Source: Candidatus Kerfeldbacteria bacterium
GTDB taxonomy: Bacteria; Patescibacteriota; Patescibacteriia; UBA9570; XYC2-FULL-38-9
Length of the DNA: 64,000 bases
Assembly: GCA_016182555.1 (NCBI GenBank)
Contig: JACPGJ010000008.1
Coordinates: 532,753-596,752 of the forward strand
Reading direction: 5' to 3'
Both the position numbers and the translations under genes were made by a program. The notes under the pieces were generated by a model, which made no database searches, was not told the origin of the DNA, and saw only the letters and a program-made list of their open reading frames with translations. Positions 26,201 to 51,833 of the stretch are shown here, piece by piece (the first letter of the stretch is position 1; each line of letters begins with the position of its first letter).

Positions 26201-27267
26201 ACATATTCATGAACAAAACCATAACACTCAATAAACGACAGGATGCCATATTGGAATACATAAAAGAGCACGAACAAGCATCTATTGCAGAAATTTTTTC
26301 GTTTATTCAAAAAACATTCCATACTGTTGCAAAAATCACGATCAATAGAGATCTGAAAAAACTGATCAACACCGGTTGGGTTATCCCCCTGGGTGCTGGT
26401 CGGGCAGTGGTATATGAACTCTCACGAACGTATGCATTGCTCCAACCGATTGATGTTGAACACTATTTTTCGGTTGAGCCCGATCAACGCCGCATTCATG
26501 ACACATTTCAATTTGATATATTTTCACAATTGAACAATATATTCTCGGTTGAAGAATTGAACCAGCTGGAATTGTGGCAAAAAAAATATCGCCAAAAAAT
26601 ACAGCAACTCCCTCCAGATGCATTAAAAAAAGAATTCGAGCGCCTCACCATAGAACTCAGTTGGAAATCTTCAAAAATAGAGGGGAATACCTATACGTTA
26701 TTGGAAACAGAAGAACTGATACGTCGACAAAAACAATCTCCAAACCATACTGCTGAAGAAGCGATAATGATTCTCAACCACAAAAAAACATTAAATTATA
26801 TTCAACAAAATACTGAACAGTTTCATACGCTATCGCGCCACACGATTGAAGAGATTCATTCCTTACTGATTGATGGGTTAGGTGTTTCACGAAATGTGCG
26901 AAAAATTTTAGTACGCATTACGGGAACAACATATACTCCACTGGACAATGCATACCAAATTGAAGACGCGCTCGAACAGTTATGCAAACTCATAAACGCT
27001 ACACAAAATCCCTTCGAGAAAGCCGTGATCGCCATGCTCCTTATTGCGTATATCCAACCCTTCGTGGATGGAAACAAACGTACCAGTCGGTTGATTGGAA
27101 ATGCATTGCTCATGGCATACGATTGTTGCCCGTTATCGTATCGCAGCATGGATGAAATGGAATATAAAAAAGCAATGTTGTTATTTTACGAGCAACAACA
27201 CATTGTCTATTTTAAAAAACTATTCTTAGAACAGTACCATTTTGCGATTGATCATTACTTTGGGTAG
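26197..27267 (+). CDS. Fic/Doc-family protein with an N-terminal winged HTH and a substituted catalytic motif
   Basis: Core motif QPFVDGNKRTSR in place of canonical HPFx(D/E)GNGRxxR (Fic) or HxFxDGNKR (Doc). The track ORF starts at a TTG (26197); the first ATG is at 26209. Confidence 0.75.
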   Translation: MNIFMNKTITLNKRQDAILEYIKEHEQASIAEIFSFIQKTFHTVAKITINRDLKKLINTGWVIPLGAGRAVVYELSRTYALLQPIDVEHYFSVEPDQRRIHDTFQFDIFSQLNNIFSVEELNQLELWQKKYRQKIQQLPPDALKKEFERLTIELSWKSSKIEGNTYTLLETEELIRRQKQSPNHTAEEAIMILNHKKTLNYIQQNTEQFHTLSRHTIEEIHSLLIDGLGVSRNVRKILVRITGTTYTPLDNAYQIEDALEQLCKLINATQNPFEKAVIAMLLIAYIQPFVDGNKRTSRLIGNALLMAYDCCPLSYRSMDEMEYKKAMLLFYEQQHIVYFKKLFLEQYHFAIDHYFG

Positions 27268-27272
27268 AAAAA

Positions 27273-28133
27273 CTATTTTTCTATCATTCCCTCAATACGG
27301 CACATCGCCAGCCAAGTGTTTTGCAACAATGATGCCACGGTCATGGGACCAACCCCGCCAGGCACCGGGGTAATATACGCCGCTTTTTCAAACACCGTTT
27401 CATAATCAACATCACCCACCACGCGGCCCTTATGCTTACTAATCCCCGCATCAATCACCATCACTCCCTGTTTCACCATATCCGCGGTAATCAAATTCGC
27501 CACACCAGTTGCGGTAATTAAAATATCTGCTCGCTTGGTATGCTCCGCCAGCCCCTCGGTCAATTTGTGGCAGATGGTCACTGTTGCGCCGTGGTTTAAA
27601 AATAATTGAGCCGTCGGTTTGCCCACAATATTACTCGCGCCCACCATGACCACATGTTTGCCGCGCACATCCATTGGTGTCGATTTTACGAGTGTCCAAA
27701 TACCACGGGTTGTCGCAGGCATAAAATACGGTTTTCCAATCGACAGCCAGCCAACATTTGCCGGATGAAACCCATCCACATCTTTTCGTGGGTCAATCGC
27801 TTCCAAAATTTCATATTGGTTGATATGCGCGGGCAGCGGCAACTGTACCAAAATACCATGAATTTTTTTATTCCGATTCAGCTTATCAATGACACGTAAT
27901 AATTTTTTCTGACTAATGTCTTCCTCAAACTCACAGCTCTCCAACACCATGCCTACTTCCTGTGATGCCTGCGTTTTAAAATTCACATACATCTGTGACG
28001 CCGGATCTACCCCCACCAACACCACACCCAACCCAGGCTTTTTCCCCGACTTCGCAATCTTCCCTTTCAGCTCCATGCGTATCTTCGCTGCCAACCCCTT
28101 GCCATTTAAAATTTTTGTTATATGCTCATTCAT
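27273..28133 (-). CDS. folD: bifunctional methylene-THF dehydrogenase / methenyl-THF cyclohydrolase
   Basis: 286 aa; FolD-family motifs including DVDGF, GKPTAQLFLN and the conserved N-terminal ILNGKGLA segment. Start placed at MNEHITK (28131-28133). Confidence 0.9.
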   Translation of the reverse strand: MNEHITKILNGKGLAAKIRMELKGKIAKSGKKPGLGVVLVGVDPASQMYVNFKTQASQEVGMVLESCEFEEDISQKKLLRVIDKLNRNKKIHGILVQLPLPAHINQYEILEAIDPRKDVDGFHPANVGWLSIGKPYFMPATTRGIWTLVKSTPMDVRGKHVVMVGASNIVGKPTAQLFLNHGATVTICHKLTEGLAEHTKRADILITATGVANLITADMVKQGVMVIDAGISKHKGRVVGDVDYETVFEKAAYITPVPGGVGPMTVASLLQNTWLAMCRIEGMIEK

Positions 28134-28196
28134 AAGGCAGAGTATAGCAGAAAGTTCTCCGCTACTCAACATATCACCAGACCATAAATAACAACT

Positions 28197-29732
28197 ATGC
28201 TAGCAAGTGAATATCGACACGGACCACGCCCAACCCGCGAACAATCATCACCAGACGCTGCGGAACGCATGCTCATTCAAGCGGCAAAAGCAGGTGATAC
28301 CAATGCGTTAGGCACACTATGGCTGCGGCACGAAAAAAAATTACGCGCTGCTGTTTTGGCGCACGTACGGAATAAAACGCTTGCAGACGACATTATGCAA
28401 GATGTGTTTATACAAGCCATGACACATATCACAGACTTCCAAACCGAATCCAGTTTTCATGCATGGATTATGGCTATTGCACGGAATAAGATTATTGATC
28501 GTTCACGAAAAAAATCAGAACGGCTCACTCATTCTCTTGATGCGATAAATACACAACGTGAAGAACGCGGTGAACCAACGGTGGAGCTTGCCGCTTCCGA
28601 AGAGCACGGCCTTGGTAAAAATACAGAAAATGATTTACTCGAAACTGAATCACGAGAGCAACTTCGTGCAGCGATCACCTATTTAAGCCCGGTATTACGT
28701 GATGTCGTTGAGTTATTCTATTTTCAACATACCCCCTATAAAGACATTGCAAAAATAATCGACATTCCACTCGGCACGGTGATGAGCCGGTTAAATGAAG
28801 CAAAGAAAAAATTACAAGAGGTATTAAAACGACACCAACACGCAGAATTTTCACAACGCATCCTTCCACAACACGCAGCGCTAGAAGAGGCCATTCAACA
28901 CATACCAAACGAACGCATGCGCAGAGTGATCTACTTGAGTGAAATACTCAAACTTCCACAAAAAGATATTATTCGACGCACAACATATTCAAAAGGCACC
29001 GTACAATATTGGATACAGCAATGGCGAACCGAATATATTTCCCCCGAACACGCAGCAGTGGCACAGAACAAACAAGCAGCATACCAAGAAGAATGGCAAA
29101 AAAAGATTCAACGATTACGCAACCCGCGTATACGAAAGGTGATGTACCTTACTAAGATTGAGGGAAAAACGCAGAAAGAAATTGCGACCATGATTGGCCT
29201 CTCTGAAACACAAGTAAATCATTATGCACAACTTGGTAAACTAGAACTGGCAACAATGACTGCTGCCAATGAAGCAGAAAACGAACAACGGATAGCACAA
29301 CTGAAAGAACAGATAGCGCGTATCACTCCTGATCAATTAAGAACGATATTGACATTAAAAATGATTGAAGGGAAAACCAATCGGGAAATCGGTGAACGCT
29401 TAGGTGTATCAGCGGGAACAATTTTTAACCGTCTGCAAGAAGGGCAACAACTCTTAAACACCCTGCGTTCTGCAGAAGAAATTGCGCGTACTGAAAAAGA
29501 AAACAGGGAGAAAAAAGAACGGTTGGTTCGCGATATTGCACAAATGCCGAATGAACGCACCCGACAACTGCTAAGCTTATATTTGTTGGAAGCAAAAACG
29601 AGTGAAGAGATAGGCACGCTATTCCATACCGCACCACAAAATATTCGGCGTCAATTACAACGCGCGCAAGCAGAATTGCGAGCACAGCAAGCGACATCAA
29701 CCAGCTCTCACCAGAACCAAGAAGCGGCATAA
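28197..29732 (+). CDS. ECF-type sigma factor with five tandem sigma-4 (region 4.2-like HTH) modules
   Basis: Sigma-2 region (DIMQDVFIQAM...FHAWIMAIARNKIIDRSRKK), then a first sigma-4 (VELFYFQ...DIAKIIDIPLGTVMSRLNEAKKKL), followed by four more HTH modules of the same pattern (IYLSEILKLPQKDI..., MYLTKIEGKTQKEIATMIGLSETQV..., LTLKMIEGKTNREIGERLGVSAGTI..., LSLYLLEAKTSEEIGTLFHTAPQNI...). Confidence 0.75.
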   Translation: MLASEYRHGPRPTREQSSPDAAERMLIQAAKAGDTNALGTLWLRHEKKLRAAVLAHVRNKTLADDIMQDVFIQAMTHITDFQTESSFHAWIMAIARNKIIDRSRKKSERLTHSLDAINTQREERGEPTVELAASEEHGLGKNTENDLLETESREQLRAAITYLSPVLRDVVELFYFQHTPYKDIAKIIDIPLGTVMSRLNEAKKKLQEVLKRHQHAEFSQRILPQHAALEEAIQHIPNERMRRVIYLSEILKLPQKDIIRRTTYSKGTVQYWIQQWRTEYISPEHAAVAQNKQAAYQEEWQKKIQRLRNPRIRKVMYLTKIEGKTQKEIATMIGLSETQVNHYAQLGKLELATMTAANEAENEQRIAQLKEQIARITPDQLRTILTLKMIEGKTNREIGERLGVSAGTIFNRLQEGQQLLNTLRSAEEIARTEKENREKKERLVRDIAQMPNERTRQLLSLYLLEAKTSEEIGTLFHTAPQNIRRQLQRAQAELRAQQATSTSSHQNQEAA

Positions 29733-29735
29733 CCC

Positions 29736-30980
29736 TTAATAGAGTGGGAATTGCTGCGTCAATCTTTTAACGGTTGCTTTTGCGGTTGTTTGAATTGTTG
29801 TGTCTTTTGGATTGCGAAGTAATTGAATAATGAGCTGGCCAATGTGCTGCATTTCGGGCTCTTTCATACCACGTGTCGTGAGAGCGGGTGTACCGATGCG
29901 TATACCACTTGGGTCGAGCGGTTTACGCGGGTCATTCGGAATCACATTTTTATTCACCGTAATACCCACTGCATCTAATACGGTTTCTGCTTCATGCCCC
30001 GTAAGACCCAGCGGAACAACATCAGCAAGGATTAAATGATTATCGGTTCCGCCAAACAACACTCGCAAACCACCGGCGCGTAATTCTTCACACAACACGT
30101 GGGCGTTTGCCACCACCTGCGCCGCATACTGCGAAAACTCCGGCGTTGCCGCTTCTTTCAGCGCCACCGCCAGTGCCGCAATCTGGTTTTCATGCGGGCC
30201 ACCTTGCAAACCCGGAAACACCGCCTTATCTATCGCTTTTGCAAACTGGGCTTTGCATAAAATCATACCGCCACGCGGGCCGCGCAATGTTTTGTGAGTC
30301 GTCGTGGTCACAATGTCCATAATCGGCACCGGATTGCGCAATACACCGCCCGCTACCAACCCCGCGATGTGTGCCATATCCATCATACTCACTGCACCCA
30401 CTTCCTGTGCAATGGCATGAAATGTTGAGTAATCCAATTCACGGGAATATGCAGAAAAACCACACAACACAATCTTTGGTTTTTCTTGTAACGCGATTTG
30501 ACGAACAGCATCATAATCAATCTCTCCTGTTTCTGGGTCGCAGGTATAGCGCACAAATCGATACACTTTTGCACTTAATGTTATCGGGTGGCCATGGGTA
30601 AGGTGCCCACCATGGCCTAAGTCCATTCCCAAAATGGTGTCGCCTGGTTTACAGAACGCGGAGTAGACCGCAATGTTCATTGGCGCGCCGGAAAGCGGCT
30701 GCACGTTTGCGTGCTCTGCACCGAATAATGCCTTCGCTCGGTCGATCGCGGTTTGTTCAATAATATCAATGAATTGATTTCCACCATAATACCGCCGACC
30801 CGGGTATCCTTCGGCATATTTATTCGACGCCACAGAACCCAACGCTTCCATAACTGCAGGTGACATAAAATTTTCCGAAGCAATCATTTCTAAACTCTGT
30901 TGTTGCCGTTGCAACTCCTGTTCCAATGCATCTGCAATGGCGGGATCTTTTTGGCGAATGTGTGGATACGATATATGCAT
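29736..30980 (-). CDS. glyA: serine hydroxymethyltransferase
   Basis: PLP-lysine motif TTTTHKTLRGPRGG, 414 aa. Confidence 0.95.
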   Translation of the reverse strand: MHISYPHIRQKDPAIADALEQELQRQQQSLEMIASENFMSPAVMEALGSVASNKYAEGYPGRRYYGGNQFIDIIEQTAIDRAKALFGAEHANVQPLSGAPMNIAVYSAFCKPGDTILGMDLGHGGHLTHGHPITLSAKVYRFVRYTCDPETGEIDYDAVRQIALQEKPKIVLCGFSAYSRELDYSTFHAIAQEVGAVSMMDMAHIAGLVAGGVLRNPVPIMDIVTTTTHKTLRGPRGGMILCKAQFAKAIDKAVFPGLQGGPHENQIAALAVALKEAATPEFSQYAAQVVANAHVLCEELRAGGLRVLFGGTDNHLILADVVPLGLTGHEAETVLDAVGITVNKNVIPNDPRKPLDPSGIRIGTPALTTRGMKEPEMQHIGQLIIQLLRNPKDTTIQTTAKATVKRLTQQFPLY

Positions 30981-32091: not shown

Positions 32092-32994
32092 TCAGCAGGC
32101 GAGAGCGTGGGAACCCAGCACATGCCGAGCCAGGAGCTCGACCACCGCACCCTCGCGAGCGGTGCGGCTCAGCTCGATCACGCCATGGGCCTTGGCATGG
32201 CCCGTACCCCTCGGCGCGAATGACTGCACCCGTGACAGGTGATTCGTTCCCTTCTCACCGATCGCCGAATCGCCACAGTGAACGATGCGCAGGTGTGAAG
32301 GGAGAACGCCAACCAACCTGGCGAGGCCATCCACTTTGTCGTATCCAGCAGGGGGCAAATAGAAATGCCCCTGCTCCGGAACAACCCAGGGGGTTTTCCG
32401 TCGGGCGAGCCCGAGCGCATCGGCCTCGTTGGCGAAAAAGCCTCCAACCTCCCGCACGAGCGCCGGTTCAGCTGGAAGCATATTTGCCAAAAAACCGAAA
32501 CCACGTGACCCATCGAAGACCAAACCCCTCTCCTTTCGGGAGGGATGGCCGTTGATCGACCTGATACCGTGGAGACGAACAGATTCTGCCACGCGATCCT
32601 TGAGGCGTGCGAATCGCAGCAGTACATCGCTGCGTTCCCTCTGCCCCATGAGATAGTGGTCGACGATCCGACCACTGGTTCGAATCTGAATGCGCGTGCC
32701 AAAATCAGCGACCCTAACCGGCATCATCAAAGATTGAATGCCCAGATACCGCATCCAAGTCTCGATTCCGGAAACAGGATTGTCCGAGGCGGCGACCAAA
32801 AGGACGCCGCTCTGTCGTGCGAGCCACATCATCCACGGCAGGTTTGGATCAAACCGATGCTCCGAGTCATACAAGTTGCCATCGAAATCAATCGCGGCGA
32901 GAGTATGCACACGAGCACCCGTCTGCCCCTCTTGCTCTGCAATGGCTGCTGAAACTGCCCTTTTCAAAAAAAACATATCGCCTCCGGCTCTCAT
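32092..32994 (-). CDS. HAD-superfamily hydrolase (HAD-IIB-like phosphatase) on a GC-rich island
   Basis: DFDGNL (motif I DxDG) and HCGDSAIGEKG (motif IV-like). Local GC is about 60%, against a window average in the low-to-mid 40s. Confidence 0.55.
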   Translation of the reverse strand: MRAGGDMFFLKRAVSAAIAEQEGQTGARVHTLAAIDFDGNLYDSEHRFDPNLPWMMWLARQSGVLLVAASDNPVSGIETWMRYLGIQSLMMPVRVADFGTRIQIRTSGRIVDHYLMGQRERSDVLLRFARLKDRVAESVRLHGIRSINGHPSRKERGLVFDGSRGFGFLANMLPAEPALVREVGGFFANEADALGLARRKTPWVVPEQGHFYLPPAGYDKVDGLARLVGVLPSHLRIVHCGDSAIGEKGTNHLSRVQSFAPRGTGHAKAHGVIELSRTAREGAVVELLARHVLGSHALAC

Positions 32995-34960: not shown

Positions 34961-35659
34961 GTGTATCATGACATGATGAAAAATATTTTACAATTACAAA
35001 CATATTTGCAGGAACAACGAATACACGGCTTAGCCGTGGATATTGATGAAACGCTTTCCTGGACCATTGGATACTGGGTTGAACAAATGCAGATGCATTT
35101 TGGAAACCCTGAACAATTGAGTGTGCAAGAACTCGTTGCAAAATATCAGTATACGCAAAACGTGCCCTATTGGCAGACAGAAGAAGCATTACAGTGGATG
35201 GAAGATCAACGGAATTCAGATGAATTACAAACAAAACTACCGCTTATTCCAGATTCAAATACGACGCTTCGGGAGATCAATAACATTATTCCTGTGGTTG
35301 CCTATATAACTATTCGACCAGAATCTGTGGTGAACGGGACACAACACTGGTTGAATGCGCATGGCTTCCCGTCAGCAGAGATTATTGCTCGCCCGAGCAA
35401 CATTCCAACGAACAAAGGAAATCAATGGAAAGCAGACACGCTCCAACAATTGTATCCGCAGGTGATTGGTATTATTGATGATAGCCCACATGTGGTGGAA
35501 TCATTATCAGCAGATTATCCAGGAGAAGTATATTTTTATAATACGGCGAAACCAAAAAGAACAGATATTCGTATTATCCCCTGCCCCACCTGGCAAGATG
35601 TTCTCACGCATTGCAAGAAAAACGTGAACAAGGCGACACAAGTGATCGCAATGGATTAA
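34961..35659 (+). CDS. HAD-like hydrolase resembling 5'(3')-deoxyribonucleotidase (NT5C family)
   Basis: VDIDETLS (DxDxT) and GIIDDSP motifs. Confidence 0.55.
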   Translation: MYHDMMKNILQLQTYLQEQRIHGLAVDIDETLSWTIGYWVEQMQMHFGNPEQLSVQELVAKYQYTQNVPYWQTEEALQWMEDQRNSDELQTKLPLIPDSNTTLREINNIIPVVAYITIRPESVVNGTQHWLNAHGFPSAEIIARPSNIPTNKGNQWKADTLQQLYPQVIGIIDDSPHVVESLSADYPGEVYFYNTAKPKRTDIRIIPCPTWQDVLTHCKKNVNKATQVIAMD

Positions 35660-36885
35660 AGTTCACTCCAAGGAATAGCGGTAATATTCTCCGCTAATTT
35701 CTCTTTTCTCTCACCCATGGTAATGACATATCCTTCTTGCGCTTGCTTTGGATAATCATTCAAAAAAATCTTCAACCCTTGTAATTCTGAATCAACAACA
35801 GTTTTTGAACTTTTAATTTCAATCGGAATCACCTTGTCGCCCATATCAATAATACAGTCCACTTCCGCACCAGTCGATGTTCTCCAGAAACAGACACGAT
35901 AATTTTTATTCAACACACGTACGCGGCGAATAATTTCCAACATGACGGCATGTTCAAACAACGTTCCTTTCTGTGTATTGATTGTTTCGTGCTCTAGCGG
36001 AAAACGAGCCAAAGCATTACGCACGCCGATATCAAAAAAATAATATCGCGATGAAGAAAGAATACGCTTACGGGCATTTTTCAAATATGGTTCGACACGT
36101 TCAATAATCAACGTGTCTTCTAATACCTGATAAAATTCTTTCACCGCCGGCAAGCTTACTCCGGATTCATTGGATAATTTTGTTAAATTTGGATTGGTAC
36201 CAGATTCCACTGCAGCCAATTCTAAAAACCGCGAGAACGCTCCTATTTTACGCAATACCGCTTCTGCACGAATCTCTTCTTCCAAATATATTTCTGTATA
36301 CGCACGGAGCACATCTCCTCGCTCTTGTTGAGGTAATTGAATGATTCCGGGCAGAGAACCAAAAATCAACGAATCTAAAAAAGAAAAAGATCGGTTGTCA
36401 TTAATATTGGCAAGTGCAATCGGGTCTATTGTATTCTCTTTGATCCACCCCAATTCACCCCAGAGGAGAGGATCCATAAAAAATCGCTTAATACGCCCGG
36501 GTAATAAATTTGCGCCACTACGTCGTAATTTTCTTGCAGAAGATCCGGTCAATACACAATAGGCTTTGTGCTGGTCAATCAATAACTGCACGGCATCAAA
36601 CAGCTCTGGTATTTTTTGCGCTTCATCTATATAAACGAGCGGAGTATATTTCAATGCTTCTACTTGGCGAATAATTTTGCCCGGATCTTTTTCCAGATCT
36701 ATACGCACCGTGGGGTCTTGAAGGAGGTATTCCAAACGCTGAGTAACCGCTGTAATCATCGTATTCACAAGAGTGGTTTTACCCACCTGGCGGGGACCTA
36801 AAATTAAACAGGACTGCTTTTTCGCTATACATTGCTGTAATTCAGCATCAATATATCGTAACAACACTTTATTTTTACCTTGCAT
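35656..36885 (-). CDS. AAA+ ATPase with a DUF4143-type C-terminal domain
   Basis: Walker A GPRQVGKTT, Walker B VYIDEAQ, about 400 aa; paralogous to the ORF at 41023-42381. Confidence 0.8.
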   Translation of the reverse strand: MQGKNKVLLRYIDAELQQCIAKKQSCLILGPRQVGKTTLVNTMITAVTQRLEYLLQDPTVRIDLEKDPGKIIRQVEALKYTPLVYIDEAQKIPELFDAVQLLIDQHKAYCVLTGSSARKLRRSGANLLPGRIKRFFMDPLLWGELGWIKENTIDPIALANINDNRSFSFLDSLIFGSLPGIIQLPQQERGDVLRAYTEIYLEEEIRAEAVLRKIGAFSRFLELAAVESGTNPNLTKLSNESGVSLPAVKEFYQVLEDTLIIERVEPYLKNARKRILSSSRYYFFDIGVRNALARFPLEHETINTQKGTLFEHAVMLEIIRRVRVLNKNYRVCFWRTSTGAEVDCIIDMGDKVIPIEIKSSKTVVDSELQGLKIFLNDYPKQAQEGYVITMGERKEKLAENITAIPWSEL

Positions 36886-36953
36886 AAATAAAGTGTAGTT
36901 TATATTTGTATATTTGTCAAGATTTATTACGCGACCACAATCACTGACGCAGA

Positions 36954-38000
36954 CTACAGTGAATCACTTGAAGTTGTAAGAAGTTTTTTATACAGCGGGC
37001 TATGCTGATTCTTATCGCATATTGCCCATACTTGAAATGCAATATGGTGGGCAGCTTTTTCCAGTTCAACTTTTTCTGTCATGGGAGCAATATCAATCGA
37101 TTGTTTTTTTCCTTCTTTAAGAAGCAGACAATCAATTTCATATCCATAACTATCTTCATCAGAACCATTTTTATCCCACGCTACATTTTCTTTTTGAATA
37201 TCTAATTGTTTACAAAAAAATATTGTGCCTAAAAAATATTTTTCATTCAGTATCCGTTGAATGTGTTCTATTTCTTCATTAAAATATGGCGGCATGGAAT
37301 CAACTGTTTTCGTGTTACTCAGCATAAGTTTCAACGCAAAAATCGTATCACTCTTCAGCTTGGCTCGTGTGGAATTTTTTTGTGCATCAGTCAGCAATTC
37401 CCCTAAACCATCAAGAATGTGCTTATTATCCATTTTTTCAAGCAGTTGAATGCATTCGGCTAATACGTTTGCAAATGGCATTTTTGCACGCTGCTCCACA
37501 ATATTTTTATTGATCCCCCAACCATTCTTTGCAAAAAACCGAACATCAAAAATATCACGGCTAGTTTTTCCCACACGTTCAAGCATTGCCATAAGTTTAT
37601 TGGCAAACATATCTTCCTGTACCATGACGGACATGGAAATACCGAGAGCTGTTTTCATTTCGTACCGAGAGCCAAATTTTCTTCGATTCACTTCCACTTT
37701 TATTTTTGGCGCTCCGGGGGTATGCGAAATAATAAGACAAAGATTAAACCGTTTTATACGTGAATACGTGATCGTTCCATAATTGGAAACAATTTTTTGT
37801 AACTTTTCAAATACAGCAGATTCTTTTTGTTCATCTAGCAAATCAAAATCCAAATCAACAGAGTCACGGTTTAACCCATAAAACAATAGCGCGGCGGTAC
37901 CACCTTTAAAACCCAAACACGTGGCAAGGGTCGTGTCAGAATACACATCTTTTAAAATATAGAGTAATAAGGCTTTGTGTTTTGAGTAGTCCGTAGTCAT
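36954..38000 (-). CDS. AbiEii-family nucleotidyltransferase toxin (type IV toxin-antitoxin / abortive infection)
   Basis: LGFKGGTAAL and RDSVDLDFDL motifs characteristic of DUF1814/AbiEii. Its ATG overlaps the stop of the upstream AbiEi-like gene as ATGA. Confidence 0.7.
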   Translation of the reverse strand: MTTDYSKHKALLLYILKDVYSDTTLATCLGFKGGTAALLFYGLNRDSVDLDFDLLDEQKESAVFEKLQKIVSNYGTITYSRIKRFNLCLIISHTPGAPKIKVEVNRRKFGSRYEMKTALGISMSVMVQEDMFANKLMAMLERVGKTSRDIFDVRFFAKNGWGINKNIVEQRAKMPFANVLAECIQLLEKMDNKHILDGLGELLTDAQKNSTRAKLKSDTIFALKLMLSNTKTVDSMPPYFNEEIEHIQRILNEKYFLGTIFFCKQLDIQKENVAWDKNGSDEDSYGYEIDCLLLKEGKKQSIDIAPMTEKVELEKAAHHIAFQVWAICDKNQHSPLYKKLLTTSSDSL

Positions 38001-38596
38001 GCATTTAGGCGTTTATAGTATTCAAAATATTCTTTCACTTTTTTTTCCATTCTTTTATTGTGGTAAATGGGTACCAGCTCAAAAACAGCTTCCCAATTCA
38101 ATGTATCTATATTATCAAAATGGTAATCCTTACTAATATACATTCTATCTAAAAACGCTCTTTCTGCTGTTGCTATAGCATAACCACCAGACTGTTGAAC
38201 TCCAGCTGTATTACTTAATACATAGTCTTTCATTCGCACATAAGAAATTTTTTGGCCATCAACAACAATTTCACGCGTCACATAGGATGCAACAAAAATA
38301 TTGTTATAATATTGAAAATTTATTCCTGCGCGAGTAAGCACTGTTTCAAAGCTGATATATGCGGGAGTATAGATTCGAGTCGCCAATTCAAAACGATCAT
38401 AACGTATGTCTTTAGCATAAAAACCACGTCGTATTCGTAGTAACTTTCCCGCTTGAACATATTTATGTAACCTGTTCGTGATCGTCGCCTCTCGCTCTTC
38501 ACCCCATAACAAAGCCACGTCTTTCGTTGAAAAGACGGTTTGAGGAGATCGGAGTAAAACCTCTACATATTCACCTTTTATTGCTTTTTTATCCAT
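37997..38596 (-). CDS. AbiEi-family antitoxin / transcriptional regulator
   Basis: About 200 aa protein with an N-terminal wHTH-like region, translationally coupled to the AbiEii gene. Confidence 0.65.
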   Translation of the reverse strand: MDKKAIKGEYVEVLLRSPQTVFSTKDVALLWGEEREATITNRLHKYVQAGKLLRIRRGFYAKDIRYDRFELATRIYTPAYISFETVLTRAGINFQYYNNIFVASYVTREIVVDGQKISYVRMKDYVLSNTAGVQQSGGYAIATAERAFLDRMYISKDYHFDNIDTLNWEAVFELVPIYHNKRMEKKVKEYFEYYKRLNA

Positions 38597-38684: not shown

Positions 38685-40244
38685 TTACAACGTTTTCACC
38701 ATATACTCCCCTTCCAGGGTATAACCTAATTTCGTACGAAAATATTCTCGCACACCAATACCAGCGATGACGGCTATTTTTTTGTATCCAGCGTCACGAG
38801 CAAGCATCTCCGCTTCGGCCATCAACCGACGACCAAAACCAATATGCTGAACCGCGCCACCGCCAGAATCAATTGGCGCTAACTTTCCGTAGGTATGAAT
38901 CTCTCGAATAATCGCCGCGTCTTGTAATTCTGGAATCCAATGCTTCGGCAACTGCTGTAAACGTAATCGCGTAAATGCGTACAATGTTTTCTTATCCGGC
39001 GATTCACAACTCAAAAAAATTTCGCGCCCACCAGAGGCTTCATAATCGCGCCGAACAATTTCCACATCATCCCACGCCACGACCGCGTTCTGTGGTTCAC
39101 GGCATCGAATACACCGGCACTCAACGCCTTGCTGCTGCATCACTTGTCGCAAATTCGTTATGGTGTTGCCGGCGTGAATGGATTCGCTTGGAATATCACG
39201 CACGAGCCGTTCAATACGCACCCATTCTGGTACGCGTTTTTTTATTTCCACTAACAACCGGAGCAGTTCTTCTGGCGTATACGGCGTGTACTTCCCTTCT
39301 TTCCACCAACGGTACAACACCGCGGTTTTAATCACTGCGGTCGGGTAAATTTTAATATGATCGGGTTGAAAATCTGGTGTGTAAAACGCATCTTCAATCG
39401 TTTTCACATCGGATTCAAACGTGGAACCGGGCAAATCTTGCATATAGTGATGCGAAATTTTGAACCCCGCTTCTTTTAACAACCGAGTCGCCCGAATCAC
39501 CTGCTCGTTGGTTTGGTCACGCTTGGTTAAGCGTAAGACTGCTTCGTCGGTAGATTGCACACCAAGTTGCACACGCGTACACCCTAAACGACGCATCCGC
39601 CGCGCTTCAGCGTATGTCACATGGTCTGGTCGCGTTTCAAGGGTTAAGCCAATGACACGATGTGAGGCCGTTTCATTCCGCTGCTTCGCTTCTTCAAATG
39701 TGCGGCAGCGTTGTTCATTAAACGCATCAAAACACCGTTTCAAAAACCACGTTTGATATGTTTTATCGTAGGCTGTCCATGTTCCCCCAAGCACAATGAG
39801 TTCACATTTATCTGTCACGTGTCCGTTGGCGCGCAATGACTCTAATCGCGTACTCACCTGCCGATATGGATCAAAATTATTGCGCAACGCCCGCGCCGCA
39901 CCGGGTTCGTTTGCTAGGTACGATTTGGGCATACGTGCTTCCGTGGGGCAATACACACACCGGCCAGGACAAAAATAGGGCTTGGTCAACACGGTAATCA
40001 CCGCCACTCCCGAAAGGTTTCGTATTTTGCGCTTGGAAAACAAACTCCACAGTGCTTCATTTTTTTCCAGCGTGCCGGCATCGATTAAACGGCGATATTC
40101 TGTTAAAATATCGGAGTTCGGTAACATCTCAATATCAAACTCTTTGGCAACAGCGGCCTTAATTTTTTTGAGCTCGGGATCAGTAGTGACTCCCCGCTCA
40201 ATCGCTCGATAAATAATTTGGTGAATTGCTTCTGGTGAAGACAT
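38685..40244 (-). CDS. elp3: Elp3-like radical-SAM / GNAT tRNA U34 carboxymethyl-uridine synthase
   Basis: Radical-SAM cysteine cluster CPGRCVYC, a long radical-SAM barrel and a C-terminal GNAT-like domain. Start set at MSSPEA (40242-40244); the ORF extends to 40313. Confidence 0.85.
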   Translation of the reverse strand: MSSPEAIHQIIYRAIERGVTTDPELKKIKAAVAKEFDIEMLPNSDILTEYRRLIDAGTLEKNEALWSLFSKRKIRNLSGVAVITVLTKPYFCPGRCVYCPTEARMPKSYLANEPGAARALRNNFDPYRQVSTRLESLRANGHVTDKCELIVLGGTWTAYDKTYQTWFLKRCFDAFNEQRCRTFEEAKQRNETASHRVIGLTLETRPDHVTYAEARRMRRLGCTRVQLGVQSTDEAVLRLTKRDQTNEQVIRATRLLKEAGFKISHHYMQDLPGSTFESDVKTIEDAFYTPDFQPDHIKIYPTAVIKTAVLYRWWKEGKYTPYTPEELLRLLVEIKKRVPEWVRIERLVRDIPSESIHAGNTITNLRQVMQQQGVECRCIRCREPQNAVVAWDDVEIVRRDYEASGGREIFLSCESPDKKTLYAFTRLRLQQLPKHWIPELQDAAIIREIHTYGKLAPIDSGGGAVQHIGFGRRLMAEAEMLARDAGYKKIAVIAGIGVREYFRTKLGYTLEGEYMVKTL

Positions 40245-40964
40245 ATGGATAACAGAACAGCAAAAAAAATTTTGAATAGCGTGCGGAGAGACTACAACAC
40301 CATTGCTGCACACTTTTCGGATACCCGTTCACAACAATGGCCGGCCGTTCGCGCATTGGTGCAACAATATATCACCCCTGGAAAAATCGTGCTCGACCTG
40401 GGGTGTGGTAATGGCAGACTAGCTGATGTTGTCACTGAAATCAAGGCAAACTATATCGGCATCGATGTATCTCCAGAACTCATTGCCCGCGCACAACAAT
40501 TACGCCCCGATAACGTTTTTCGCGTCGGCACCATGATGCAGATTCCCTTGCCAGACAACAGCGTTGATCATACGCTCCTCATCGCCAGCCTGCACCATAT
40601 TCCTTCCCTTGCCTACCGCATCCAAACACTGCAAGAAATAAAACGGGTAACACGACCAGGTGGGTACATTATTTGTATGAATTGGAACCTGCACCAGTGG
40701 CGATTTTGGAAATTGCGCTTGCGTTGGAATGCGCGCAAACTGTTCAGGCGTCACCACATGGACTGGAACGATACGCTGGTACCATGGAAAAACCCCGCAG
40801 GCGCCATACTCGCGGAGCGGTACTACCACGGGTTTACAGAACAGGAAATAAAAAAATTAGCAAAAAAAATTAGCTTGCCGTTAGTCCAACAATATTACGA
40901 AACCCATGGCACTCACGTTCCTAGGTACCGTGGGCAAAACTTGGTGAGTATATTGAAAAAATAA
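40245..40964 (+). CDS. class I SAM-dependent methyltransferase, Trm9-like (candidate cm5U to mcm5U methyl esterase)
   Basis: VLDLGCGNGR; LLIASLHHIPSL...RVTRPGGYIICMNW; C-terminal RYYHGFTEQEI resembling the Trm9 YYH.F.E motif. Confidence 0.65.
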   Translation: MDNRTAKKILNSVRRDYNTIAAHFSDTRSQQWPAVRALVQQYITPGKIVLDLGCGNGRLADVVTEIKANYIGIDVSPELIARAQQLRPDNVFRVGTMMQIPLPDNSVDHTLLIASLHHIPSLAYRIQTLQEIKRVTRPGGYIICMNWNLHQWRFWKLRLRWNARKLFRRHHMDWNDTLVPWKNPAGAILAERYYHGFTEQEIKKLAKKISLPLVQQYYETHGTHVPRYRGQNLVSILKK

Positions 40965-41022: not shown

Positions 41023-42381
41023 TCAGACAAAAAAACTGACTAAGCGGGGGGTAAGATAGAATGGGACAGATAACAATTGATACACTTTTCCTGCAATACG
41101 CATATCCTGCATCTGTAGCGGCTCACGAGAAACACGAACCAATTGATGTTCCGCCGTTTCCTCCGCAAAACGATGCAGTGAACGTAATTTCATTGCGCTT
41201 CCTGATTTCACTTCAAGACCCACAATACTGCCTTGATAGGCAAAACAAAAATCAAGTTCGGCGGAGGATTCCATTTTTGATTTTCCCCAATAGTATAATG
41301 CGAGCGGCTCATGCATACCTTGGGCGATCAGTTGCTGACCAACCACTTGCTCTGCTATGCGACCACGATAAAATTCGTGGAGGTCTTTGAGGTGCACATA
41401 CTGTGCCTGAATGCCCGAACGATAGTTGACTAATCCTACATCCAAAAAGAGTAATTTTTTTACTCGCTTTTGCTGTGCAATCAGGGGCAACTGAATAGAT
41501 TGCGTGGCTGAAATCTGTGAAAGGATCATGGCACGATTCAGTGTTTCAAACGCAAATCGTAAATCGCGACTGTGATAGAGTTGCTGCCCAAATTTTTCAT
41601 AGGTCGTTGTAGCGCCAGCAAAAAGAGGAGACTGATCAATCACATATTGCAGGTACCGTGCTTGCGCTTGGCCCGCGTATTTATACACATCTTCTGCGTA
41701 GGTGGTCAGTAAACTGCTATAGATCGTTTGCACATCAGAGACACTCCGTGACTGCATATACGCGCGCACCACTTCCGGCATACCGCCAATCATGGTGTAT
41801 TCATAAAACTGTTGCAACGCAATGTGATGCAACGGTGCACTTATTGTGCTGCCCATATCCACGGATCGTAAAAAATCGAGCAGTTGCGTCTCGCCTTTGG
41901 CTTGTAAATATTCAAAAAAATCGAGTGGGTACATGTATAAATATTCCACTCGTCCAACCGGTAAGGACAGCCCCTCGCGCATCATTTTTGCTTCTAATAA
42001 AGAACCGGCGGCAATCACATGTAACTCTGGGCGTTGTTCATAAAAAAATCGCAACAATTGTAAAAGATCTGCACTTTCCTGAATTTCATCAATGAACAGA
42101 AGGGTCTTCCCCGATATGAGTTTCTTGTTCATTTGAATATCAACAATTTGTTCAAATTCAGTAACGGTCATCGGTTGATTAAACCACCGAAAATGATCGG
42201 CCTGTTCTAGGTTGATATAGACCAAGTCAGCAAATTGCTCTTTCGCAAATTGCACAACAGCAGAAGTCTTTCCTACTTGACGCGCACCTCGAAGTATCAA
42301 TGGTTTATGATTGGGCTTATCTTTCCAATTGAGTAAATAAGGAAATATGTTACGTTTGAACATGGTACCATTCTTAGACAT
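41023..42381 (-). CDS. AAA+ ATPase with a DUF4143-type C-terminal domain (second copy)
   Basis: Walker A GARQVGKTS, Walker B LLFIDEIQ; alternative start at MFKRN (42363). Confidence 0.8.
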   Translation of the reverse strand: MSKNGTMFKRNIFPYLLNWKDKPNHKPLILRGARQVGKTSAVVQFAKEQFADLVYINLEQADHFRWFNQPMTVTEFEQIVDIQMNKKLISGKTLLFIDEIQESADLLQLLRFFYEQRPELHVIAAGSLLEAKMMREGLSLPVGRVEYLYMYPLDFFEYLQAKGETQLLDFLRSVDMGSTISAPLHHIALQQFYEYTMIGGMPEVVRAYMQSRSVSDVQTIYSSLLTTYAEDVYKYAGQAQARYLQYVIDQSPLFAGATTTYEKFGQQLYHSRDLRFAFETLNRAMILSQISATQSIQLPLIAQQKRVKKLLFLDVGLVNYRSGIQAQYVHLKDLHEFYRGRIAEQVVGQQLIAQGMHEPLALYYWGKSKMESSAELDFCFAYQGSIVGLEVKSGSAMKLRSLHRFAEETAEHQLVRVSREPLQMQDMRIAGKVYQLLSVPFYLTPRLVSFFV

Positions 42382-46812: not shown

Positions 46813-49536
46813 CTATTTCTTTTCTTCTGACTGTGGTACAGAAAGCAAATGCATAATCGCATCTCTTGCAGATATTCCAAGAAAAACTCGATGTTTTTTA
46901 TCCGGTGTTTCCCCAACTCCATTGCGCATCACCAACGGATGACGTACTGAAGAAGACGGCACATACGTCATTGTTGGTCGCCATGGATCTCCGACGGTAT
47001 TCAAGCGTGTATCTGGATGAGTGGTTTGAATGCCGTAAATTTTTTCCTCATCCTTCTGGCGACGATCATGAATCTCTGTTTGTCGACGTTCCCAGCGCGT
47101 GCGCGCTTCTTCTGTAGAAAGATATTTTGCTTCAAAACGATGTTGATATTCCTCCTGTTCTAATTGTGAGTAGCGTTCAATGAGATGTTGACGTAATTCC
47201 ACCGAAATACTCGGTAGACCTTCTGGACGGCGCTGCCCTTTCGCACTCAACAGATCCATCAAAATATGCCGTGCGGTGGCACGATGCGCATCTTCTTTGA
47301 GCAACGCACGCTGCAGAAGCACCTGCTGTTTATCGTTCAATTCCATTTCCGTAAACCTTGGCTCTTGTATTAAACGCTCCCATGCCGCTTGCCGAGATGC
47401 ACGCACGAGCGGAATATCCGTCTCTCGCCAGTGCGGAACATGTTCGATACGCAGCGCTGGTACCTCTTCTCCTCTTGGCCCCTTCTGCAACTCAATATCA
47501 ATAATTTCTTGTTGTGGCTCTGTGTTCGATTGGTCTGGGCGTTGTTCTGGCCCAATCACTACATAGCGATGATGAAATTTTCGCGTACGCGGTTTACGGG
47601 GTGGGTATAATGGTTTGTCTGTTGGTTCTTTGGAAGCATCAGTGTCTCCTCCTTCAGCTGGTTTTGAATGTTTTTTCTCTGGTTTAGCCAAGTCTTCTCC
47701 AACAACAGAGAGCGGCGCATACAATGAGGTCATATCATGCGCTTCAGCTATACACAATGCACGTATCACTGCGGCCAAATCTTTATGCTCTTCTGGAATG
47801 GATTCCGCAATTTGTAAATCTTGATTCAAGTGCCATTCAAAAACACTGTTCTCTCCCACACACGTGACGGTCATGGCTGGTTTATGATCAGTATCAATCG
47901 CTAAATGAACACGACACGATGGTGATAATGTAAATTCCGCTTTTTTCCATGAAAGTGCACGAAAACTGGGAACTTCTCGTATATCCGAAGCTAGGGCATC
48001 TACAATGGTATCAAATTGTTCGCGCCGGTGTTCTGGAATACGAGGTAATTCCGGTAAACCTTCTTGCGGATTGCGATCCCACTTGGTTTCTGTGACCACC
48101 TGCTGAATTGCACGACCTTTTGCATCTTGTTCACACCACTGTTCTGGTAACATGCCTATTTCAGGGCGTGGTTGATATACAGCAAGCTCATTCAATTTTT
48201 GTAATCCAAATGCATACAAGCCAGAGCTATTCATTCTGCGTGAGTGGAGATCTGTATATCCGCGCATATGCAATAAGTAGGTTGCAACTGCCTGGGTCGC
48301 TTCTGCACCATAAACATCATCAATCTGTTCAAATATAGTACGTATCAACCCTGCCTGCTCATCAAGCATCGGCGCACCTAGCATCAATTCTGGAACGGTA
48401 TAAAAATGTTGACCTGCAGCACCAGCATAATATGCATGATACCCTCTCATGGCTTGCAATAATGCATGCGGTAAACGCGAATGAAATAAATTTTTTCGGA
48501 GGATTCTTTCTGCGGTTGCGTGCTGTGGGTTATTTGTTTCTGCAAGAGCTGCTCCGTATGGTCGTATATCTGTGGTAGGCACGAAGGTAGATAAGCAATC
48601 ATACAAGTGCTGCATCAAGGGAGGAGTAGATATTTTCCTAACACTATCGGCATCAAAAAGCGAAGTATGGGAATTCAATATTTTCAACCGAGCAGCCAAA
48701 TCAGCACGATATTCTTCTTTCAATAATGGATGAGCCGCATATTCTTTCGAACCATAATACACGCTGCCATATTGATTGACCAGGTATTGAGTAATTACTG
48801 GTAATAGTAAACGAATATCAAAAAAAGTATCTATGGGCTTATAGCGCGCAGTGGCATGTAAGGATTCAATGGCTATTCCTGCATGCTCATGGTCGGCAGT
48901 ATCTGGTCGAACTTCACAAATGCGTTTGAGATATGATTCAGGCCGTTGTAAAAATAATTTGATTGGGTGGAATGGTGGAAAACGATCAATACCGACGGCT
49001 GTGTCTTGCTGTGTATGATATATATGTTGTTTACCAAGCTCTGTAGAGAGCATCACCATAGAACCAAGTACTGCACCTTGGACTGCGGGATGATATACAC
49101 GGACACCAACCTCCAAAATGACACGTAACGTAGTGGCTAACTCCGTTATTTGTGCATCGCTCGCAACACTGTCTTTGGTAAACTGTTTATTATAACGATC
49201 AACCTCCGCTTGAATTAATCCGCCAACATCAACTCCACTGTGCATTGCAGAAATTAACCGTTGAATGCGCGGCTCTTCTCGACGAATTAAGGCTTTATCG
49301 ATACGTTGTAATTGTTGTAATAGAGCATCTGGTTTATGTTCTTTCGCCATACGTATCAATATTTTATTACCTGGTAGTATATCAAAAATAATGAATAAAA
49401 TCAAGGTGAGGAGTTGTAACTCCTCACTGGTAGAATCAAAATCACCTATACCTGTAGTGGTGACAGAAAAAAATTTATGCAACGGATTCAAACTATAGCG
49501 CCTGAACTGTTTTAACAAATTGTTTACCGCGTTCAA
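46813..49536 (-). CDS. large hypothetical protein (907 aa)
   Basis: Long uninterrupted ORF with no recognisable motif. The C-terminal third is charged and coiled-coil-like. Its 3' end overlaps the murD stop region by 44 nt. Confidence 0.55.
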   Translation of the reverse strand: MNAVNNLLKQFRRYSLNPLHKFFSVTTTGIGDFDSTSEELQLLTLILFIIFDILPGNKILIRMAKEHKPDALLQQLQRIDKALIRREEPRIQRLISAMHSGVDVGGLIQAEVDRYNKQFTKDSVASDAQITELATTLRVILEVGVRVYHPAVQGAVLGSMVMLSTELGKQHIYHTQQDTAVGIDRFPPFHPIKLFLQRPESYLKRICEVRPDTADHEHAGIAIESLHATARYKPIDTFFDIRLLLPVITQYLVNQYGSVYYGSKEYAAHPLLKEEYRADLAARLKILNSHTSLFDADSVRKISTPPLMQHLYDCLSTFVPTTDIRPYGAALAETNNPQHATAERILRKNLFHSRLPHALLQAMRGYHAYYAGAAGQHFYTVPELMLGAPMLDEQAGLIRTIFEQIDDVYGAEATQAVATYLLHMRGYTDLHSRRMNSSGLYAFGLQKLNELAVYQPRPEIGMLPEQWCEQDAKGRAIQQVVTETKWDRNPQEGLPELPRIPEHRREQFDTIVDALASDIREVPSFRALSWKKAEFTLSPSCRVHLAIDTDHKPAMTVTCVGENSVFEWHLNQDLQIAESIPEEHKDLAAVIRALCIAEAHDMTSLYAPLSVVGEDLAKPEKKHSKPAEGGDTDASKEPTDKPLYPPRKPRTRKFHHRYVVIGPEQRPDQSNTEPQQEIIDIELQKGPRGEEVPALRIEHVPHWRETDIPLVRASRQAAWERLIQEPRFTEMELNDKQQVLLQRALLKEDAHRATARHILMDLLSAKGQRRPEGLPSISVELRQHLIERYSQLEQEEYQHRFEAKYLSTEEARTRWERRQTEIHDRRQKDEEKIYGIQTTHPDTRLNTVGDPWRPTMTYVPSSSVRHPLVMRNGVGETPDKKHRVFLGISARDAIMHLLSVPQSEEKK

Positions 49537-50843: not shown

Positions 50844-51833
50844 TTAGTACCCTAACCCAACAACATCGTACACTTCTTTGAGTGTTTGTGTGGCAATGGC
50901 CCGCGCACGTTCTGCACCAGCATCTAATACAGCATCTAACTCCCCAGCGTCATTCATATACGTTGCCATTTTTTCTTGAATCGGTGTAATCCATGCCACA
51001 ACGGCTTCACCCAATTCTGTTTTGAAATCGCCATACCCGCGACCAACATATTCTTTCTCCAAATCCGCAATGCTTTTACCTGTCACCACGCTATAAATCG
51101 TTAACAAATTCGTGAGTGCGGGTTTGTCATCACCTGCCCGAACTTCACTTTCTGAATCCGTTACTGCGCGTTTTATTTTTTTACGAATCACATCAGGTGT
51201 GTCCGTAAGAGCGATGGCATTCCATTCACTTTCCGCGCTCTTAGACATTTTTTTGGTTGGATCATCAAGCCCCATAATACGAGCACCCTGTTTTGGTGGA
51301 ACATATTCCGGCACCGTAAAGACTGGCTTGTCGTAATGATTATTAAACCGTTGAGCAAGATTGCGTATCAATTCTATATGTTGTTTCTGATCTTCACCCA
51401 CGGGCACCAACTCAGTTTTGTACAACAACACATCAGCCGCCATGAGCGCCGGGTAAGTAAACAACCCGGCATTGATATTTTGCGCATGCTGTTTAGACTT
51501 ATCTTTGTACTGCGTCATGCGCTCTAACTCTCCCATTTGTGTAAACGTATTCAACACCCAAGCGAGCTCCGCATGTTCCGCCACACTCGACTGCACAAAA
51601 ATACTCGCTTTCTCTGGGTCTACCCCGCACGCCAAATACCCGGCTGCCGTTCTGCGAATAGCAGCACGCAGTTCTTCCGGTTTCTGCCGTACCGTAATAG
51701 CATGTAAATCCACAATACAAAAAAGGCTTTCATAGGAATGTTGTAATTCAATCCATTGCCGTACGGCACCAATATAGTTGCCTAAATGCAAGTGACCCGT
51801 CGGTTGAATGCCAGAAAGAATGCGTTTACTCAT
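50844..51833 (-). CDS. trpS: tryptophan--tRNA ligase
   Basis: HIGH-type motif (TGHLHLGN) and KMSKS. Confidence 0.93.
   Translation of the reverse strand: MSKRILSGIQPTGHLHLGNYIGAVRQWIELQHSYESLFCIVDLHAITVRQKPEELRAAIRRTAAGYLACGVDPEKASIFVQSSVAEHAELAWVLNTFTQMGELERMTQYKDKSKQHAQNINAGLFTYPALMAADVLLYKTELVPVGEDQKQHIELIRNLAQRFNNHYDKPVFTVPEYVPPKQGARIMGLDDPTKKMSKSAESEWNAIALTDTPDVIRKKIKRAVTDSESEVRAGDDKPALTNLLTIYSVVTGKSIADLEKEYVGRGYGDFKTELGEAVVAWITPIQEKMATYMNDAGELDAVLDAGAERARAIATQTLKEVYDVVGLGY

Follow-up and report, generated by a model that had tools for sequence, protein, structure and literature searches.

Does a bacterium of the Candidate Phyla Radiation (CPR, Patescibacteria) make a wobble-uridine modification that is treated as eukaryotic and archaeal? 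The question is raised by two genes that meet head-to-head in a 64-kb stretch of a Candidatus Kerfeldbacteria metagenome-assembled genome (MAG), taken from a contig of 598,550 bp; this whole stretch is referred to as the window. One gene encodes a homolog of Elp3, and the other a class I S-adenosylmethionine (SAM)-dependent methyltransferase resembling Trm9. In the literature, 5-methoxycarbonylmethyluridine at tRNA position 34 (mcm5U34) and the Elp3/Trm9 pathway are assigned to eukaryotes and archaea, and bacterial xcm5U is described as lacking evidence (PMC7663514). A sequence-only reading of the window had proposed that the two genes form an mcm5U34 module of the eukaryotic and archaeal kind. 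Our analysis supports this proposal through family membership, active-site residues and gene linkage, the product being one that we infer, and we place its probability at roughly 75%. The pathway itself is known; what is new is that a linked Elp3-Trm9 pair is widespread in the sampled genomes, apparently unrecognized in the literature searched. The elements in question are as follows.

38685-40244, reverse strand: elp3, homolog of the stand-alone radical-SAM/GNAT tRNA U34 carboxymethyl synthase, 519 aa from its ATG
40245-40964, forward strand: Trm9-type class I SAM-dependent methyltransferase, predicted tRNA (carboxymethyluridine34-5-O)-methyltransferase, 239 aa
40242-40247, either strand: CATATG junction of the two divergent ATGs with 0 intergenic bases, read directly from the sequence

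Both open reading frames (ORFs) lie where they had been placed, divergently oriented, and all of the motifs quoted for them were found: CPGRCVYC (Elp3 residues 92-99), VLDLGCGNGR (methyltransferase residues 49-58), SLHHIPSL...RVTRPGGYIICMNW and RYYHGF.E (192-201). The abutment of the two ATGs as CATATG is likewise borne out, the reverse-strand ATG occupying 40244-40242 and the forward ATG 40245-40247. An in-frame GTG upstream of elp3, at 40313, offers an alternative product of 542 aa. Both ATG starts are supported, since homologs are co-linear with the window proteins from residue 1 in multiple alignments (21 methyltransferases and 16 Elp3 proteins). NCBI holds entries of 239 and 519 aa from Ca. 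Kerfeldbacteria that are identical to both proteins and have identical starts; the longer one is named Elp3 (P0121) and the shorter merely "class I SAM-dependent methyltransferase".

A stand-alone Elp3 and a Trm9-type methyltransferase

Residues 15-519 of the elp3 product match positions 7-522 of the 522-position model TIGR01211 with 535.2 bits (cut-off 350). The best match among PDB entries is the archaeal MinElp3 of Methanocaldococcus infernus (6iaz, 417.8 bits, E = 4e-124). Strong alignments were also obtained with the bacterial DmcElp3 of Dehalococcoides mccartyi (5l7j, 392 bits, E = 2.6e-116, query residues 71-518) and with mammalian ELP3 (8ptx, E = 5e-101, query residues 14-519). In Pfam, Radical_SAM and Radical_SAM_C were recovered with 64.9 and 77.9 bits respectively, and Acetyltransf_1 alone stayed below threshold (16.9 vs 20.7 bits). 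The following parts of the protein can be located by alignment or composition.

39948-39971, reverse strand: radical-SAM [4Fe-4S] motif CPGRCVYC (C92, C96, C99), aligning with the MinElp3 cluster loop
39102-39119, reverse strand: cysteine triad CRCIRC (C376-x-C378-x2-C381), the linker zinc motif of prokaryotic-type Elp3, placed by alignment
38832-38849, reverse strand: acetyl-CoA motif QHIGFG of the GNAT/lysine acetyltransferase (KAT) domain (Elp3 residues 466-471), aligning to QHMGYG of MinElp3
40035-40244, reverse strand: N-terminal Elp3 extension of about 70 residues, rich in basic residues (KKIKAAVAK, SKRKIRN)

Among 16 patescibacterial Elp3 sequences, C92, C96 and C99 (CPGxCxYC), the triad C376/C378/C381, the QHxGxG motif (Q466, H467, G469, G471) and a C-terminal GVR.Y..KLGY block are all invariant. 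The GNAT catalytic residues are thus kept (QHxGxG and KLGY) together with the radical-SAM cysteines. The triad corresponds to three cysteines that are conserved in bacterial and archaeal Elp3 and missing from eukaryotic Elp3 (PMC6367351). At the N-terminus, the alignment begins at query residue 14 with mammalian ELP3 (its residue 29), at residue 54 with MinElp3 and at residues 70-71 with DmcElp3; this part of Elp3 has been linked to tRNA binding and activity (PMC6367351, PMC7663514). Because the match covers the full-length model and the catalytic motifs are invariant, the window protein is, by its sequence, a canonical stand-alone Elp3, in line with the full-length homolog named by the sequence-only reading, and synthesis of 5-carboxymethyluridine (cm5U34) is predicted. 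MinElp3 forms cm5U in vitro (PMC7663514).

The identity of the methyltransferase was approached through family models, solved structures and individual residues. In Pfam only generic class I families were matched, with Methyltransf_11 at 80.4 bits, and the best NCBIfam match was the DVU_1556 family, below threshold at 52 vs 155 bits. An assignment to UbiE/MenG/COQ5 or another small-molecule methyltransferase was considered and rejected, every curated model scoring far below its cut-off: TIGR01934 at 46.3 vs 158 bits, PRK00216 variants at 42-48 vs 216-327 and TIGR02752 at 42.6 vs 420, with all UbiE, MenG and BioC matches in NCBIfam falling in the same range relative to their thresholds. The Pfam match to Ubie_methyltran (33 bits) covers the shared methyltransferase core only. 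Trm9 stands at the top instead. In a phmmer search against PDB sequences, the Trm9 subunit of the Trm9-Trm112 complex of Yarrowia lipolytica (YlTrm9, 5cm2_Z) came first (E = 1.5e-12, query residues 25-229) at an identity of only about 23%. A profile built from the 21-sequence family placed the same chain first at 102 bits (E = 2.9e-28), followed by PH0226 at 82.8 bits over the methyltransferase core only (query residues 35-150). The AlphaFold2 model of the protein (pLDDT 94.4, pTM 0.90) has a Rossmann-like strand order, and Foldseek with this model again ranked 5cm2_Z first (E = 3.9e-16, TM-score 0.84 on the target). The proposed resemblance to Trm9/ALKBH8 is therefore upheld by sequence, profile and fold. 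Databases name the family inconsistently: in IMG, a few members are called TRM9 or ALKBH8 and others UbiE.

More discriminating than these rankings is the match at the level of residues. Blocks outside the Rossmann core, HFSxTR..W and RYYH, align to Trm9 alone. The relevant blocks, numbered against yeast Trm9 (ScTrm9), are listed here.

40311-40340, forward strand: HFSDTRSQQW block (methyltransferase residues 23-32), in which R28 corresponds to ScTrm9 R29, aligning to ANTRYKPW of YlTrm9
40389-40418, forward strand: SAM motif I VLDLGCGNGR (residues 49-58), in which D51 corresponds to ScTrm9 D72, aligning to vDiGCGNGk of YlTrm9
40593-40598, forward strand: HH dyad (H117 and H118, corresponding to ScTrm9 H115 and H116)
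40818-40829, forward strand: RYYH (R192, Y193, Y194 and H195, corresponding to ScTrm9 R241, Y242, Y243 and H244), aligning to RYYH of YlTrm9

The 21 homologs are invariant at F24, R28 and W32, at D51, G53, C54, G55, N56, G57 and R58, and at H118, R192, Y193 and H195; H117 is conserved in at least 90%. In ScTrm9, the mutants R29A, D72A, H116A, W145A, W168A, R241A, Y243A and N271A have lost activity or have it strongly reduced (PMC4678810, Létoquart et al.). R29A retains about 5% activity, D72A abolishes SAM binding and H116A is inactive, and the essential residues were assigned to placing the cm5U carboxylate and the uracil (PMC4678810). HMMER alignments map R29, D72, H116, W145, W168, R241 and Y243 onto R28, D51, H118, W147, W181, R192 and Y194, so that seven of the eight activity-critical residues are kept in the window protein. 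R28, D51, H118, W147, W181 and R192 are invariant across the 21-sequence alignment, and Y194 is the consensus residue, replaced in some family members. The eighth, N271, probably has its equivalent in N232, which is conserved in at least 90% of the family and in the model opens the last beta-strand, following a family-specific loop of about 10 residues.

Both proteins can be set beside known systems. Like MinElp3 (6iaz, 6ia8), the window Elp3 combines radical-SAM and KAT domains with an N-terminal extension and a linker cysteine triad and has no other Elongator subunits. Unlike MinElp3, it belongs to a bacterial host, carries the cluster motif CPGRCVYC (Cx3Cx2C) rather than CPHGKCIFC (Cx4Cx2C) and has short deletions in the loops that follow the cluster motif and precede the KAT domain. 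DmcElp3, which has been characterized structurally, is likewise a bacterial stand-alone Elp3, but its N-terminus is significantly shorter, which may contribute to weak tRNA binding and activity (PMC7663514), whereas the window protein has an N-terminal region of about 70 residues. The methyltransferase shares with eukaryotic Trm9 and the ALKBH8 methyltransferase domain (5cm2) the class I fold and the HFSxTR..W, DxGCGNG, HH, W..Q, PW and RYYH blocks. It differs from Trm9 in an extra loop of about 10 residues before the last strand (221-231) and in the head-to-head position of its gene with elp3, and from ALKBH8 in having neither AlkB nor RRM domains. In Sulfolobus solfataricus, the genes for Elp3 and Trm9 are also clustered, with Elp3 as the sole Elongator subunit (PMC2584109, PMC6144793). 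Archaeal Trm9, however, is limited to a subset of archaea (PMC2584109), whereas the pair described here is present in most sampled genomes. Haloferax volcanii Trm9 (HVO_1032) works with Trm112, and no overlap of divergent start codons has been described for the archaeal cluster. Finally, the bacterial MnmE/MnmG system (cmnm5U/mnm5U34) serves the same tRNA position and decoding role with an xm5U34 side chain (PMC7663514), but a GTPase and a FAD/folate enzyme are unrelated to Elp3 and the methyltransferase in both enzymes and chemistry. Among the 33 window ORFs scanned, no Pfam match to MnmE/MnmG domains was obtained.

Taken together, the two proteins would constitute a two-step module of archaeal/eukaryotic type in a CPR bacterium. 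By homology to MinElp3 and yeast Trm9, from which the chemistry, the product and the tRNA substrates are drawn, the stand-alone Elp3 would bind tRNAs bearing U34, and its [4Fe-4S] cluster would cleave SAM to a 5'-deoxyadenosyl radical. Acetyl-CoA bound by the KAT domain would then be used to form cm5U34, whose carboxylate the Trm9-type enzyme would esterify with a methyl group from SAM, yielding mcm5U34. The module would act independently of Elp1/2/4/5/6 and possibly of Trm112.

Linkage of the genes and spacing of their start codons

Is the arrangement peculiar to one genome? With each species represented by one genome (GTDB r232), a family-profile scan returned at least 444 stretches with relatives of the methyltransferase, and the 80 best loci were retained. 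In most cases the record title names a Patescibacteria group (Kerfeld-, Falkow-, Magasanik-, Nealson-, Portnoy-, Komeili-, Kuenen-, Berkel-, Gracili- and Peribacteria, Paceibacterota and Saccharibacteria); bulk-submitted MAGs titled "uncultured Gammaproteobacteria" are also present, in what looks like placeholder taxonomy. A tblastn search with the window Elp3 located a homolog within 6 kb of the methyltransferase gene in 73 of the 80 loci, as the upstream divergent neighbor in 70 and elsewhere in the flank in 3. Across loci, identity ranges from 32 to 55% for the methyltransferase and from 37 to 70% for Elp3, and these low values argue that the divergent arrangement is old. Since the same gene pair recurs in most of the related genomes sampled, Patescibacteria as a group probably make, judging by gene content, a tRNA modification not documented in bacteria.

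When every ORF of 45 aa or more in the 80 loci was clustered, the methyltransferase and Elp3 alone proved near-universal, and no third gene approached their conservation. Trm112, a 2-thiolase or a scaffold protein was considered for this role and rejected: the next clusters are antisense artefacts within elp3 or reflect subclade synteny (an 89-aa EF-Tu-D2-like protein, NIF3/DUF34, a SLOG protein, SHMT, Mur ligase and FolD), and Trm112 was not found among the conserved flank genes. Fusions of Elp3 with Trm9 were also absent from the best 150 of 1,773 relatives (E <= 1e-30) in a library of 1.84 billion representatives, where lengths range from 210 to 377 aa.

Some neighbors recur in part of the loci. 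In 21 loci (L009, L011, L024, L028, L031, L033, L035, L037, L039, L040 and others; for example at 2673-3620 of L037), elp3 is closely followed by a NIF3/DUF34-family gene, which in 16 loci is preceded by a conserved, lysine-rich ORF of about 53 aa that matches no Pfam family. On the methyltransferase side, a SLOG-cluster4 protein recurs downstream in 20 loci and the 89-aa EF-Tu-domain-2-like protein in 29. One short contig titled "Candidatus Pacearchaeota archaeon" (L052, DAOPTN010000030.1, 4,579 bp) carries the same divergent pair with starts overlapping by 8 nt, its Elp3 sharing up to 50% identity with that of the window; either a Patescibacteria contig was binned wrongly here, or the locus hints at exchange between CPR and DPANN.

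Published descriptions of bacterial Elp3 are sparse. A 2020 review places it in one Dehalococcoides clade and finds no evidence for xcm5U in bacteria (PMC7663514), and a 2026 paper states that "numerous bacteria" have Elp3. Our literature search found no report of an Elp3-Trm9 pair in CPR/Patescibacteria, and nothing relevant on Elp3, MnmG or tRNA modification there.

The junction itself was then compared among loci. For 69 loci, the starts were set by aligning each protein to its window counterpart, the ATG close to the alignment-expected position being preferred; with the window itself, this gave 70 junctions. The two ATGs share 2 nt as CATG in 18 of the 70, abut as CATATG in 6 and are separated by 1-6 nt in 17; spacing thus lies between -2 and +6 nt in 41 and between -23 and +21 nt in 52. 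As an independent check, ORFs were called from the first ATG in all 80 loci and the whole window, about 0.9 Mb. This gave 110 divergent ORF pairs, of which 40 are spaced by 10 nt or less, every one of them the Elp3/methyltransferase pair; most of the remaining pairs are separated by more than 30 nt. Near-zero spacing of the start codons is conserved and specific to this pair, and its recurrence in 41 of 70 loci argues against chance. The shared hexamer highlighted by the sequence-only reading is therefore present, but what is conserved is the spacing and not the hexamer: CATATG follows automatically when two ATGs abut, and CATG is more frequent than any other form. The idea that CATATG is itself a motif was rejected, other lineages using CATG or short spacers.

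Two separate observations concern the hexamer and divergent starts within the window. CATATG, an NdeI site, occurs six times (13098, 16543, 23476, 33242, 40242 and 48265) as against 24.6 +/- 5.4 times in dinucleotide shuffles, a deficit that strand counting may make about 2-fold and not 4-fold; this scarcity may reflect restriction-site avoidance. Two further divergent gene pairs have closely placed putative starts, namely FolD (27273-28172, reverse strand) and a sigma-like gene (28197, forward strand), 24 nt apart, and SHMT (29736-30980, reverse strand) and a PfkB kinase (30926, forward strand), which overlap by 55 nt as longest-ORF calls.

With start codons that abut or overlap in most lineages, the promoter and any initiation signal of each gene must lie inside the coding sequence of its partner. 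We speculate that the abutting starts point to coupled expression, through leaderless divergent mRNAs or antisense transcripts overlapping at their 5' ends. A scan for consensus sigma-70 promoters found nothing at the junction, and fewer sites overall than in shuffled sequences. The -10-like pattern TANNNT is present at -17 to -11 of the Elp3 ATG in 23 of 41 loci (13.2 +/- 3.0 when shuffled) and upstream of the methyltransferase in 19 of 41 (14.2 +/- 3.0); similar peaks occur at -59 to -46 of the Elp3 ATG, so the enrichment may mirror conserved methyltransferase codons. Shine-Dalgarno (SD)-like motifs are near-absent upstream of both genes (2/41 and 1/41 loci). This scarcity is not special to the pair, since throughout the 80 loci and the window only about 13% of the first-ATG ORFs that reach 120 aa have an SD-like 4-mer at -18 to -5. 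Many Parcubacteria are reported to have lost the anti-SD motif (PMC9297842), which fits this scarcity, and translation initiation in these genomes appears to be largely SD-independent.

Genomic neighborhood and competing explanations

In the window, the immediate neighbors of the pair are defense genes, which bracket it (35656-38596 and 41023-42381).

36954-38000: AbiEii (E = 5.9e-73), overlapping AbiEi by 4 nt
37997-38596: AbiEi (E = 1.5e-59)
35656-36885 and 41023-42381: two AAA_14/DUF4143 ATPases, PADLOC candidate PDC-S01 (E = 2e-72 and 9e-148)

From these neighbors the sequence-only reading had placed the pair inside an accessory neighborhood, which our results do not bear out. The pair has a GC content of 46-50%, like the core genes SHMT, FolD, PGM and iPGM, whereas the flanking defense genes have 36-40% (36-38% in the AbiE region). 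In 10-20 other loci, genes for SHMT, FolD, Mur ligase, PGM and a bactofilin-like membrane protein are again found close to the pair, which most of the sampled relatives carry. In one of these relatives (L014), the gene immediately behind that of the methyltransferase is the bactofilin-like one, which makes the PDC-S01 ATPase at this position in the window look inserted. Given its core-like GC content and conserved synteny, the pair is a core gene pair and not part of an island, and the AbiE and AAA_14/DUF4143 genes look like low-GC insertions.

Several observations weigh against the assignment to mcm5U34. The margins over generic methyltransferases are modest, at 102 vs 83 bits for the profile and E = 3.9e-16 vs 5.8e-16 in Foldseek. 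Pfam and NCBIfam hold no Trm9-specific model, and the methyltransferase obtains generic family matches only. HMMER leaves ScTrm9 N271 unaligned to N232, their equivalence being drawn from the strand order of the AlphaFold2 model. Eukaryotic Trm9 needs Trm112, and a motif search of the window returned no Trm112-like zinc-knuckle ORF, only an unrelated protein. Between 5 and 7 of the 80 loci have the methyltransferase without a nearby Elp3, 2 of the 7 ending at a contig edge. One could hence argue that Elp3 is genuine while its neighbor is no cm5U methyl-esterase, acts on another tRNA or rRNA position or on a small molecule, and resembles Trm9 as a compact enzyme of Methyltransf_11 type; the fact that generic Pfam families alone pass threshold, the sub-threshold DVU_1556-family and MenG/UbiE-type matches that lead in NCBIfam, the small Foldseek margins over unrelated methyltransferases and the lack of a local Trm112 would all fit. 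We regard this as unlikely. The counterparts of R29, H116, W145, W168, R241 and Y243 are conserved, most of them invariant, the non-Rossmann blocks align only to Trm9, and linkage to Elp3 in 70-73 of 80 loci, maintained while the flanks change, would be difficult to account for unless both enzymes served one pathway.

The defense genes on both sides invite another explanation, in which the pair is a recent horizontal cassette from an archaeon, for example of the DPANN group, that travels with a defense island and alters tRNAs against anticodon nucleases, resisting them or mimicking their targets. The immediate flanks (AbiEi/AbiEii and two PDC-S01 ATPases), the locus titled as a Pacearchaeota archaeon and the description of bacterial Elp3 as rare or confined to one clade (PMC6367351, PMC7663514) could be cited in its favor. 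It is nevertheless highly improbable, as 73 of the 80 species genomes, under many Patescibacteria titles, carry the pair with protein identities down to 33-45%, as expected for old vertical inheritance; its GC content is that of the core, the defense genes lying 8-12 points lower; the neighborhood of SHMT, FolD, Mur ligase, PGM and the bactofilin-like gene recurs elsewhere; and the L014 arrangement makes the ATPase look inserted. The group's ancestor may have received the genes by an ancient transfer. As for the junction, the abutting starts might be an annotation artefact or mere compaction, with true starts downstream and a normal intergenic promoter. These genomes are small and gene-dense, our start choice favored the ATG near the alignment-expected position, the promoter scan was empty at the junction and the -10-like enrichment was not specific to it. 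Such an artefact seems improbable to us, however, given that the alignments of both families begin at residue 1 and show conserved N-termini, that the same register recurs independently (CATG in 18 loci, CATATG in 6) and that all 40 divergent pairs within 10 nt in about 0.9 Mb are the Elp3/methyltransferase pair.

A broader form of the mcm5U34 reading can be put forward tentatively, as a conjecture that we would not bet on at even odds. CPR bacteria would decode split codon boxes through mcm5(s2)U34, Elp3 and a Trm112-independent Trm9 having replaced the near-universal MnmE/MnmG, and the two genes would be expressed from a single overlapping promoter as leaderless or near-leaderless mRNAs that share their start bases.

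Other features of the window and biological significance

Beyond the pair and its neighbors, the window contains several genes of note. The sigma-like gene mentioned above (28197-29732, forward strand) encodes a 511-aa sigma-70-like protein with one region 2, three separate Sigma70_r4_2 stretches and further helix-turn-helix matches, an unusually long, repeat-bearing architecture of sigma/anti-sigma-like type. A Fic/DOC protein encoded at 26197-27267 (forward strand; Pfam Fic 61 bits, PADLOC SoFic E = 3e-21) lies in a kilobase of 35% GC and may be a defense or toxin gene. Five reverse-strand ORFs matched no Pfam family at E <= 1e-5: 46813-49536 (907 aa), 21826-23514 (562 aa), 51830-53218 (462 aa), 19347-20501 (384 aa) and 32092-32994 (300 aa). 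The last of these falls in the GC-richest kilobase (57.5%) of the profiled region 26000-52000.

If the mcm5U34 reading is true, Elp3/Trm9 wobble chemistry may be in use across a very large share of bacterial diversity. This would bear on the history of wobble modification, either as ancient inheritance or as an early transfer between CPR and archaea, and would give a specific function to thousands of proteins now called "class I SAM-dependent methyltransferase". It would also provide stand-alone bacterial enzymes for work on mechanism, including an Elp3 with the N-terminal tRNA-binding extension that is largely missing in the weakly active DmcElp3. The conserved fusion of start codons offers a clean natural case for the study of overlapping divergent promoters or leaderless translation in hosts that are largely devoid of SD motifs. 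Finally, the susceptibility of these bacteria to anticodon nucleases that recognize mcm5s2U, whether in phage defense or as toxins, would be affected.

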